DNA of 64,000 bases from Candidatus Eiseniibacteriota bacterium (GTDB taxonomy: Bacteria > Arandabacterota > Arandabacteria > Arandabacterales > Arandabacteraceae), in contig JBDRNT010000091.1 of the NCBI GenBank assembly GCA_043810925.1, positions 18,800 to 82,799 on the forward strand, written 5' to 3'. Below are positions 36,001-39,000 of the stretch, in pieces. The position numbers are program-made. Numbering within the stretch: the first letter of the stretch is position 1; every line of letters starts with the position of its first letter.

Positions 36001-39000
36001 GCCATTATAATCCCCAGGCCAACCGCATAGCTGCAGAAGTGCTCCGGCGATTTTTAAAGAGCATGTAGAGCGCGCCTTGCATTAACCGATGGAGCTGCCA
36101 TTTCCGTATTCGAGCTTGAAGAGGCATCGCTCTTATGGTAAGATAAGGAAGTTGCGAGCAAGGAGGTGGTCTTCATGCGTACCTTGAGGATGATCACCCT
36201 CTGGGTGGTCCTCATCTGTGTCCCTGTGGGAACCATATTGGCCCAGCGTGCTTTCCAGCTCAAAGAGGACTATGAGCTGGACCCGCTTTCTGACTGTGCC
36301 CTGCAGTACTATTATTACATCCCATGTCCTACATATTCATGGTTCTGGTCTTACTACTACTGGGACATCGGCGATGTGGCCGGTTCCTGGTTTGACATCG
36401 GGGATCTGTCCACCGGTGGGTTCGGGGCATGTGATCCGACCGACTGCCACACTCTGGACCAGATACGTATACTGAACAGTGGTGTAGTCTGCCAGGGACC
36501 TTTCGGCCAATCGTATCCCGGGGCATACGTGCATTTCGAAGTCCATTGCGCGGACGAGATCGGCCGGCCGGTTGGTCCGACCCTCTGGCGCAGTAATACG
36601 ATGCTCCTTGATACCTATGGATGGAACTACATCGACGTAGACCCGCCGATCAGTATCTGTGGCTGTGCCATCGACCCCGGTCCCCCGGCGTCGACTCCAA
36701 GGATACTTGTGACCATCGCAGTGCACCCGGGGACCGCGCCCTGGTGTATGGAGCTGGGTGCGGACAACATAAGCGATGCAATCGGGGAGGGATGCGATAT
36801 GCATGACGATGGTTGTCTCCCTGCCCTGTATCCGCGACCGCATGTCGGCTATTATCCGACTATGCACTCGGCCTTCTACCGCCAGATGGGTACAGTCTAC
36901 GACCCTCCGAAGCTGATCAGGGATCGAAATGACACCACACCCGATAGAACACAGTATGGTTATGTCGAGCTGGCATGGCGGATCTATCTGACGTGCTCTG
37001 GGCCATCCGAGAGGTACTCGACAACCTGGGGTGGGGTCAAGTCGCTCTACCGATAGGCCTGCTGCTCACCGGTAGAGAGCCTTGATGGTGCTCCAGGTGG
37101 TAGGTTCCGTCGCCGCGCTCTGAGTACAGAAGCCGCATGTCCACAGAGCCTCAAGGTAGCCGAAGCTCATGCAACCACAGAGGTCACAGAACGAATCCTG
37201 CTTACTCCAGGCCCACTCGGTGCCATAGTCGTAGGTATGAGTCGCCAGTCTGGGATAGACGTACGGGGTGGTCCCCATTTCACAGCAGAATGCATTTACG
37301 GCGCAGCTGTCGACACAGGTGCATACATCATCCAGAACCAACGAGGGATGGCCGGTAGGGTTCTTCCAGGTTACGAGCACGACGAAAGCTCCATTACAAC
37401 CCGAAAGGTCAAGACCCGGCCCCTGCCCATTGTTGGTGAAGTCGATTCCCGTCACGGTAACGCGTGCGGTATCTACGAAGAACGGGTCAAAGTCCCGGTT
37501 ACCCAGCAGCGGTCCAGTCGGTTCGCCGGATGTATCGGCTCCATAGATCTTAACATTGAGCCCCTGCTCTGCCGGTGGCGCGAGCACATCGTAGAAGACC
37601 AGATCGATGATGTCCATGGTCATACAGGCCGCCGTATCACAAGGATCGCGCCATGCCACCGTATCTACCATATTGAAGTGCACCCCAAAGCTCGCGGCTT
37701 CCTCAATAGCCTCAACAACAGTGACGTACCCACAGCCATTTATAAGATAGAAGTAGCTCAATTCACAGCTGGGAAGGAGATTCCGGCCCAAATCTCCAAT
37801 TTCCTTAATATCACTCGGCGTGAGCGGGATTGTCCTCATTGTGGATGCGAGCCCGGACCCTACAATCAGGACTATTGAAATACCAAGGACAAGTCCTGTT
37901 TTCATGTCTGGAACTCCTTACTTACCGTCGCTGAAGGCGAGTGTAAAAGTACATCCGGGCGGTTGTCAAGCTGATTCCGAAACCCTCTTGTTCCGGGCCT
38001 TCTGCCCCAACCCACACATATACCGAATCCTGTGGAAAACTCCTCTTGCAGTGGTTTCAATATTGTGCATAACTCCTTGATCTCACGTCGGTTGGCGCCA
38101 TATCCACATAGGAGGCCACTTTATCCACAATTCCACACCTCAGATGCCCCCGGGCGTGCTTCGGACCTGGGGTACCCGCTCGGAGAGTGCGCGAGGCTAG
38201 AAGCCTATAACATACTGGATTACAAACTCGTGGGGATGGCCACCCTTACCGTCGTCATGCGCAAAACTCTGGCTTATCTTGAAGTTGGATAGAGGGTGGT
38301 TTGCCGGTGGCGGATATATGATCAGCCCGAAGGTGGATCTCTTGATGTCACGTCCGGACCCGTCGTCCAGATCAACCTGGCCATACCGTCCTACGGCCTC
38401 GAAATTCGAGCTGACACGATACGCCACCTCCCCGTAGAAACCCCGCTTCATGAGATCATCCCCGCTTGTCTCCTGGGCCCCCCCCACGTATTCTCCTCTC
38501 ATCGTCAGATCACCCCTCCGGCAGTCGAACGCCAGGTCCCAGATATCAAGGTTCTGCTTCCCGTCCACGGTGTAGGCACCGGTGTAGTATGAAGCGCTGA
38601 TCTCTGTGTCTTGCCGCGGCTTGAGTCCTATTCGGCCGCCACGCGCCTTGTTGTCGTGATTGCTGTCTCTATTGTTGCCGCGCATCTTGCGTATGTCGCC
38701 CCCGTCGGCAACCGAACCGTCCGCGTTCGCCGATTGCTCCAGCCCGTTGACGATATAGGCACTGTAATTGATGGAGCGACCGTGTATGAATTCGTACGAT
38801 CCTCTCACCTGCACGCCGGATTCCGCCCACACGATCGGTACAATGTTCCAAAGGCACAGGGGCCTGTCCGGCAGTTTGTTGGCATATTCGGTGCTGAGAA
38901 ACTCGTTGAACCGTCCCATCGGGACCAGGAACTTCCCGAAGCGAAGGATCGCAAGACCCGCCAGTTTGTAATCGAGTATCCCGTAGCGGACTCCCAGGTC

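Follow-up and report, generated by a model that had tools for sequence, protein, structure and literature searches.

A short portable C-terminal tag on secreted proteins of Candidatus Eisenbacteria and its putative role as a localisation label

In a stretch of 64,000 nucleotides from Candidatus Eiseniibacteriota (contig JBDRNT010000091.1 of assembly GCA_043810925.1, positions 18,800 to 82,799), analysed whole and called the window here, two facing genes, A and B, encode cysteine-rich secreted proteins that end in nearly the same short peptide, referred to below as the tag. Gene A (36175..37056, + strand) specifies 293 aa from an ATG, with an alternative GTG start at 36166, and gene B (37066..37905, − strand) a divergent paralog of 279 aa; according to the open reading frame (ORF) calls, the spacer between the stop codons is 9 bp long (37057..37065). 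The convergent ORFs with signal-peptide-like N-termini were as described in the first-pass annotation, and both 11-residue tails that it had reported, TTWGGVKSLYR in A (37021..37053, + strand) and TTWSTIKALYR in B (37069..37101, − strand), were located in the sequence. Its figure of 16–20 cysteines was an overestimate, with 13 counted in A and 15 in B.

The product of A could be divided into four parts. The signal peptide MRTLRMITLWVVLICVPVGTILA (36175..36243, + strand; putative cleavage site, residues 2–23 predicted helical) shows the n-h-c layout common to all members in the alignment of the A family, and B begins with the signal peptide MKTGLVLGISIVLIVGSGLA. It is followed in A by a jelly-roll beta-sandwich passenger (residues ~27–274, 36253..36996, + strand) that ends at the nearly invariant Cys274, its limits being set from secondary structure and the predicted local distance difference test (pLDDT), conserved columns and fold matches. 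A flexible linker, SGPSERYS (36997..37020, + strand), comes next, with pLDDT below 50 at residues 278–280 and the positional-profile consensus GP[TS]xxEP in the family. The tag closes the protein as a predicted short helix (residues 285–292, block-mean pLDDT ~54–67), with W, G, K and Y almost unchanged across the A family. Accordingly, in the AlphaFold2 (AF2) model of A the last strand is followed by ~19 residues of disordered linker and 8-residue helix. The model of B was poor (pLDDT 57) and was set aside for the fold; its tail was again a helix (residues 271–278).

That A and B are old paralogs had been proposed from collinear blocks. The blocks G[RE]PxGPxL, YPR[PL] and [YF]GY[VL]E..W stood, while the first block of the series is exact in B and approximate in A (CALQYYYYIPC). 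Direct BLASTP comparison of A with B was weak (23% identity, E = 2e-4), but B matched a 44-sequence profile of the A family over 229 columns with an hhalign probability of 97.7% (E = 1.4e-12), and so the two are genuine, old and distant paralogs. BLASTP of B against family members at other loci gave E values down to 7e-12.

A hypothetical protein encoded in a Candidatus Eisenbacteria metagenome-assembled genome (MAG), P0001, shows 100% identity to the product of A. In metagenomes and MAGs, 334 homologs of ~285 aa could be detected, all without a Pfam domain, and 119 listed homologs are 45–75% identical to A. The family is multi-copy and often tandem, with 58 genes in 46 of 57 related genome loci, and its full-length members share the blocks LQYYYYIPC, GCPVGPxLW, LPALYPRP and YG[FY]xELAW, of which B holds degenerate versions. 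A and B thus both belong to this unnamed Eisenbacteria jelly-roll family. Neither matched Pfam or NCBIfam, and the homology searches led to a large family with no model in either and no described C-terminal domain, an outcome in favour of the first-pass reading. The family is specific to Eisenbacteria; its members are Sec-exported, Cys-rich and presumably disulfide-bonded, and are predicted to be jelly-roll proteins resembling lectins or carbohydrate-binding modules (CBMs). The predicted fold is that of the galactose-binding-like/CBM superfamily, but identity to the CBM jelly-rolls (the Cwp84 lectin-like domain 4ci7, the SGNH esterase CBM 7tog and PHR domains) is only 5–13%. The A family differs from them in having its own Cys pattern, its own motifs LQYYYYIPCPTYSWFW and LPALYPRP, and no Pfam or NCBIfam match; neither membership in a CBM or galactose-binding-like sequence family nor a conserved sugar- or Ca-binding site was found.

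A third carrier in the window is unrelated to A and B. Gene C (31060..32067, − strand) encodes a secreted PD40/TolB-like beta-propeller of 335 aa (Pfam PD40, E = 1.5e-59; TIGR02800, 5e-58, below its cutoff) with the tail ...ESTTWSHIKAGFSSE. Its tag, TTWSHIKAGF with three extra residues, SSE (31063..31101, − strand), is a degenerate copy that scored 16.3 bits against the tag profile, compared with less than 5 bits for unrelated ORFs. A degenerate DNA pattern of the motif has three matches in the window where 0.08 would be expected, a number that no shuffle out of 100 reached, and the motif is thus beyond chance. All three matches are in frame; each stands 1–3 codons ahead of the stop in a long ORF that encodes a signal peptide, and the three carriers cover two unrelated folds.

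The portability of the tag was examined in two samples. One comprised ~650 kb from the 57 related genome loci and the window, searched in six frames with W[SGAT]x[IVLM][KR]xx[YFW]; the other comprised 499 kb of metagenome DNA (at least 120 contigs), found by a DNA pattern for T-W-G-x-I-K-[AGEDV]-x-Y-R-stop. In the genome loci, 81 of 88 motif matches lay no more than 6 residues from the stop, and 11 of these 81 were outside the A/B family profile (~9 genuine carriers and 2 spurious short ORFs). Among the matches listed, 164 of 170 in the metagenome loci were terminal (no more than 6 aa from the stop), only 21 of them in the A/B family, and in both samples together (1.15 Mb) the terminal matches amounted to 245 of 258. 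The 148 tagged ORFs among the matches listed fell into at least 54 BLAST-unrelated clusters, with only 55 in the A/B family cluster. The Pfam domains found on tagged proteins were Beta_helix, PD40, NHL, CHRD, LTD, pullulanase-X25 with Big_5, and CBM96. Again among the matches listed, a signal-peptide-like h-region was present in 104 of 128 tagged and in 172 of 782 untagged ORFs; 95 tagged ORFs look like signal peptidase I substrates and five carry a lipobox. The shared tail, far from being confined to the paralogs or inherited with their family, is the core of a portable C-terminal module, strongly biased towards the C-terminus and associated with signal peptides.

The opposite explanation, that the tail is paralog-inherited sequence or a DNA-level 3'-end element (terminator or repeat) with no peptide function, draws on the paralogy of A and B and on the inverted repeat formed by their tag-coding regions. 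The repeat is imperfect, with 32-nt arms (37021-37052 / 37070-37101) that are 72% complementary and 17 nt apart. As a by-product, it follows from the encoding of one peptide on opposite strands; it could serve as a putative bidirectional terminator hairpin. In 75 instances from the genome loci, where the search was unbiased, third codon positions vary (Arg is written AGA, AGG, CGG or CGC, and Ser codons come from the TCN as well as the AGY set), and the information content drops to ~0 bits directly after the stop codon. Since third positions are free and conservation ends at the stop codon, the peptide, rather than a DNA or RNA element, is under selection. The clustering, the codon analysis and the Pfam diversity of the tagged, unrelated folds refute the inherited or DNA-element explanation, to which we attach virtually no probability.

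From 140 tails outside the A/B family, the core consensus T-W-G-x-I-K-[AS]-[LMI]-Y-R at the C-terminus was derived, in which the positions that the search pattern had fixed are to be discounted; the genome-locus set, free of the motif-based selection, gave the same core as the metagenome tails. Upstream of the core these 140 tails prefer [TV] at −7, P (54%) or A at −6, [VTA] at −5 and E, R or K at −4, and Cys stands at −9 to −11 in ~40% of them. The full module thus covers ~17 residues, [TV]-P-[VT]-E-x-x-T-W-G-x-I-K-A-L-Y-R. An exact YR end was seen in 132 of the 140 non-family tails, a fraction inflated by the Y-R-stop that the metagenome pattern required. Terminal Arg was found in the same 132 and in 74 of 85 family tails, terminal Lys in 2 of 140 and 7 of 85, respectively; the invariant Lys of the tag stands four residues from the end.

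The tag is predicted to form a helix of two turns, which in the AF2 model of A is set off from the domain by the linker of low confidence (pLDDT below 50). Such a helix could be a generic in-plane membrane anchor, a short amphipathic element of the PBP5/PBP6 or MinD kind tethering periplasmic proteins peripherally to a leaflet or to lipopolysaccharide through Trp/Tyr and Lys/Arg. In favour of this are its predicted helicity and a composition (W, I, L/M and Y beside K and R) that is apt for binding at an interface; tandem copies, which exist (see below), would raise membrane affinity. The 10-residue core, however, has a mean hydrophobicity of ~0 with the invariant Lys in its middle, and its helical hydrophobic moment (100 degrees) of ~0.5 was matched by 10–20% of shuffles of the same residues. 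The amphipathic C-terminal anchors of PBP5/6 and the membrane-targeting sequence of MinD are likewise short helices without a transmembrane segment, but they are defined by amphipathicity, whereas the tag is defined by a near-invariant sequence with an unremarkable moment. Near-invariant W, G, K and Y and the P/V/E stretch, kept in at least 54 families with saturated synonymous sites, go well beyond the sequence specificity that such an anchor would need, and we give this explanation little credence.

The first-pass annotation held that the motif is absent from the known sorting signals that it could name, and this was borne out: no Pfam or NCBIfam match fell over the tail, the tails of eight tagged proteins matched none of the NCBIfam short C-terminal hidden Markov models (HMMs), and the literature searched contained neither the motif strings nor anything on secretion or sorting in Eisenbacteria. 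The tag is therefore an add-on for which we found no model and no description. PEP-CTERM, LPXTG, GlyGly-CTERM, MYXO-CTERM and PGF-CTERM are, like the tag, short, lineage-restricted and present on paralogous and unrelated secreted proteins, and the P-x-E(-P) stretch upstream of the tag loosely recalls the PEP motif. In tripartite signals of the PEP-CTERM and LPXTG type, however, the motif is followed by a transmembrane helix of ~15–20 residues and a basic cluster; the tag has neither, and only ~10 residues come after its P-x-E stretch, which leaves no tripartite layout. Nor is the tag a beta-signal of outer-membrane proteins: it ends in Arg, not in F, Y or W, its hydrophobic residues recur at i, i+3 and i+6/7 instead of alternating as in the last strand of a barrel, and the passenger is a soluble jelly-roll.

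The C-terminal domain (CTD) of the type IX secretion system (T9SS) is the closer parallel, being likewise a C-terminal add-on to many unrelated Sec-exported families, in a phylum of the Fibrobacterota–Chlorobiota–Bacteroidota group and in the same genomes. It is a folded beta-sandwich of ~70–100 aa, whereas the tag has ~10–17 residues, is predicted to form a two-turn helix and can be tandem or internal. The earlier remarks on its small length compared with a T9SS CTD and on the missing transmembrane segment were confirmed, and genuine T9SS-type CTDs were found elsewhere in the window. The T9SS CTD HMMs (TIGR04183/PF18962) gave no match to A, B or C at E ≤ 1; the search was sensitive enough, because two other secreted proteins of the window matched. 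One is the product of a 3' gene end (1..759, + strand) with a T9SS type A sorting domain (TIGR04183, 28.8 bits, cutoff 23; FlgD_ig, 1.6e-11). The other is a secreted 529-aa protein (48674..50263, − strand) with a T9SS-type/FlgD-Ig CTD and no tag, whose HMM scores were 28.2 bits for FlgD_ig (above the cutoff of 27) and 21.3 bits for Por_Secre_tail (below the cutoff of 23); a Cys-rich domain (AKIAVHVRPH...) forms its N-terminal part, and it also contains a choice-of-anchor-D-like Ig domain. Since these two window proteins carry them, the organism uses T9SS-type CTDs as well.

Tag and CTD were not found together: among the matches listed, none of 39 ORFs with a T9SS-like CTD in a 1.17 Mb sample was tagged. 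They do occur on homologous passengers. On one contig, a tagged protein (L109 11411-12547) and a CTD protein (L109 3264-4814) share a 227-aa domain (E = 3e-63), and a tagged 219-aa protein of L040 matches the N-terminal domain of the CTD protein encoded by 48674-50263 in the window (29% identity, E = 3e-12). The two modules thus alternate on homologous passengers, and such a 'choice of anchor' is the usual signature of alternative sorting modules.

This alternation also suits the main rival to a docking role, according to which the tag is a sorting signal that is cut off in a pathway dedicated to export or attachment, comparable with T9SS-CTD/PorU, PEP-CTERM/exosortase or LPXTG/sortase. An envelope enzyme would then remove the tag, and the passenger would be released across the outer membrane or ligated to lipid, glycan or peptidoglycan. 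Such a signal would account for the bias towards the C-terminus and for the Arg that ends 94% of the non-family tails (a share to be read with the terminal Y-R required by the metagenome pattern). Processing could take place at the conserved [TV]-P-[VT]-E(-P) that precedes the helix, and the apparently large number of carriers per genome (3 in the 64-kb window) is typical of sorting systems. Nevertheless, the tag comes with no transmembrane helix or folded domain that would hold a substrate at the membrane or translocon, and neighbour clustering linked no candidate sortase or peptidase to the tagged genes. No sortase, exosortase or rhombosortase genes turned up in the window or in the ~1.17 Mb of loci, although no search was aimed at them.

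Tandem, internal and post-signal-peptide copies of the tag, which are not expected of a cleaved signal, were found when 1.84 billion representative proteins were scanned with a HMMER tail profile, the output of which was dominated by the family of a CBM-like gene with an in-frame TGA (described below). The lipoprotein P0221 has four tandem tags with Pro/Gly linkers of 8–10 residues between them, and P0245 and P0279 have two tandem tags each. P0274 and P0284 are laid out as domain-tag-domain-tag, and in P0281 and P0288 one copy follows the signal peptide immediately while another ends the protein. A free C-terminus is therefore not strictly required by the tag, and its copies can be multiplied. 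Multi-tag proteins are exceptions, since none of the 148 tagged ORFs of the DNA sample, among the matches listed, had more than one copy. Tandem and terminal-plus-internal layouts are, to our knowledge, typical of avidity-type binding motifs and are not known for cleaved sortase-type signals. With these copies on one side and the C-terminal bias on the other, cleavage appears unlikely, though by no means negligible.

We favour, with some reserve, the reading that the tag is a portable C-terminal localisation label bound by a common envelope receptor, by docking rather than cleavage. Three features speak for docking: copies occur in tandem or inside a protein, the sequence is specific, and no element is present that would hold the protein at a membrane. 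Both the localisation role and non-covalent docking in place of cleavage and ligation are what we infer, whereas the existence of the tag, its portability, its C-terminal bias, the selection on the peptide, its association with signal peptides and its separation from the T9SS CTD were observed. The sorting-type reading of the first-pass annotation gained support in this way, 'sorting signal' being itself an interpretive term and the rare tandem and internal copies pointing to a docking peptide. After Sec export and removal of the signal peptide, the folded passenger would display the tag on its flexible linker. The Pro/Thr linker would present the predicted two-turn helix to a shared envelope receptor or machinery, and binding would retain or position the passenger at a defined layer of the envelope, as an alternative to the T9SS-type CTD.

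Several known systems offer partial parallels. The C-terminus of Lpp, ...K-Y-R-K, is cross-linked to peptidoglycan by L,D-transpeptidases; like the tag, it is a very short C-terminal motif with Tyr-Arg and a Lys close by, and it attaches an exported protein to one layer of the envelope, as the tag would, and some multi-tag carriers are lipoproteins, which recalls the two-point attachment of Lpp. Lpp uses its terminal Lys, however, whereas the tag ends in Arg in ~90% of cases and seldom has a terminal Lys (...YRK). The type 1 peroxisomal targeting signal (PTS1) with PEX5 and the dockerin-cohesin pairs embody the same concept, a portable C-terminal element on a flexible linker with a common receptor and avidity. 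The likeness is one of analogy only: these systems are eukaryotic and clostridial, respectively, without sequence relation to the tag, and dockerins are folded, Ca-binding domains of ~70 aa.

A free C-terminal position and an invariant Trp and Lys four residues apart would also fit a quality-control or processing motif, for example one recognised by a PDZ protease in the periplasm or by an enzyme that modifies Trp or Lys. PDZ ligands have a hydrophobic terminal residue as the norm, and the tag, ending in Arg, is unlike them. A degradation tag on hundreds of abundant secreted proteins would be hard to rationalise, internal copies exist, and no modifying enzyme was linked to the tagged genes; this explanation is accordingly a very improbable one.

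Several points weigh against a docking label. Neighbour clustering in the genome and metagenome loci found no conserved neighbour of the tagged genes, and no receptor, protease or sortase-like partner was found linked to them. The near-absolute C-terminal preference and the terminal Arg also fit a signal that is recognised and removed. The AF2 confidence over the tag is only about 54–75, and part of the observed consensus is fixed by the motif-based DNA pattern with which the metagenome sample was collected. Taxon labels are available for only seven proteins from about five MAGs, so that the true range is poorly known. The labelled carriers P0001, P0014, P0116, P0178, P0191 (= OGF23686.1) and P0245 (= MBD3367218.1) come from Candidatus Eisenbacteria MAGs; the single exception is P0173, labelled Candidatus Krumholzibacteria, and most carriers lie on unlabelled metagenome contigs.

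More tentatively still, the tag may mark a previously unrecognised localisation system, phylum-wide in Eisenbacteria and close relatives, parallel to T9SS and with perhaps hundreds of cargo proteins per genome. Its signal, with no transmembrane helix, no folded domain and a capacity for tandem arrangement, would be unlike the known classes, and we consider it possible, on the same tentative footing, that it is served by machinery of its own which is still to be found. LPXTG, PEP-CTERM and the T9SS CTD each led to dedicated envelope machinery and are used routinely to predict the surface proteomes of uncultured bacteria. In a phylum that is widespread in soil and sediment and has no cultured member, the tag is found on a large part of the proteins exported. 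Its recognition would define a cargo set of lectin-like, propeller, beta-helix, CHRD and LTD proteins, make an annotation HMM possible and give a handle for finding the partner machinery. If the ~10-residue peptide does dock non-covalently, it might also be used as a compact display or anchoring tag.

Among the neighbours of A and B, the gene at 38197-39456 (− strand) had been singled out as an outer-membrane beta-barrel gene immediately next door. It is indeed adjacent, but it is not a conserved neighbour: no homolog was found near other family members, and it lends no support to a partnership. Its product gave marginal matches to Porin_O_P (E = 2e-4) and Porin_4 and ends in ...VIQYVIGF. Both this porin-like gene and the GDSL esterase gene at 35100-36068 were rejected as partners, as neither has counterparts near family members elsewhere. 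The gene upstream of that for the four-tag protein P0221 encodes an HNH-endonuclease-like product and was dismissed as irrelevant, the context of P0221 being uninformative. Directly downstream of the porin-like gene, inspection of translations placed genes for V/A-type ATPase subunits (D, B, A and others; 39662-48039, − strand). Upstream of B lies a sigma-70-like promoter match, TTGACA-18-TACACT (37940..37969, − strand), which is a consensus match only, three such matches having been found against 1.8 expected.

The multi-tag proteins include a family with a ~150-aa uncharacterised domain (SPENVL..AY...Y.DCL..DF.F), some of its members being lipoproteins, which is also encoded at L178:10001-10819; the tags stand in tandem (2–4 copies) or at both ends of the domain. 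Conceivably, this domain assembles with itself or binds the tag. Among the genome loci, an internal tag, KPSTWGGIKAMYK, was found only in L011:13672-14688 (+ strand), where it follows a signal peptide and a short beta-rich segment and precedes a 264-aa region with an HELGY metalloprotease-like motif. Two repeat-bearing proteins were discarded: in P0282 (925 aa, tape-measure-like), with GWSALKALYRWSPLG repeats (five of AA(A/E)EAGWSALKALYRWSPLG), the likeness to the tag was judged a coincidence, and in the repeat protein P0285 it was judged a matter of chance.

In seven genome loci (for example L001:12057-12641 and L008:10822-11412, + strand; also L002, L005, L007, L044 and L051), family-A genes are followed closely downstream by a conserved, tagged CBM-like gene of ~190 aa with a signal peptide. 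Each of its seven copies has an in-frame TGA, always at the same codon (L001 12438-12440, L002 1353-1355, L005 8053-8055, L007 9631-9633, L008 11206-11208, L044 1055-1057 and L051 855-857), in the context G-[LEY]-G-[IV]-G-TGA-[ST]. The 13-nt stretch GTCGCCGGGAGCG after the TGA is invariant, third codon positions included, and a predicted hairpin resembling a selenocysteine insertion sequence (SECIS), with GG in its loop, starts ~21 nt after the TGA. A homolog with Cys is known (P0257, GAGYG-C-G). An Rfam search around the in-frame TGA gave nothing meaningful. The gene is a candidate for a secreted selenoprotein. More than 50 metagenome records (P0121-P0176) have it broken up by gene callers. 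When a 45-aa tail alignment was used as the query, the matches were mostly its ~50-aa pieces from after the TGA, and a 67-family tail alignment retrieved only 11 candidates.

Lastly, tagged genes favour TAG as the stop codon. It ends 63% of them, against 40% of untagged ORFs, in the genome loci, and among the matches listed from the metagenome loci 62% of tagged against 32% of untagged ORFs. The preference may reflect the Arg-stop context or high expression.

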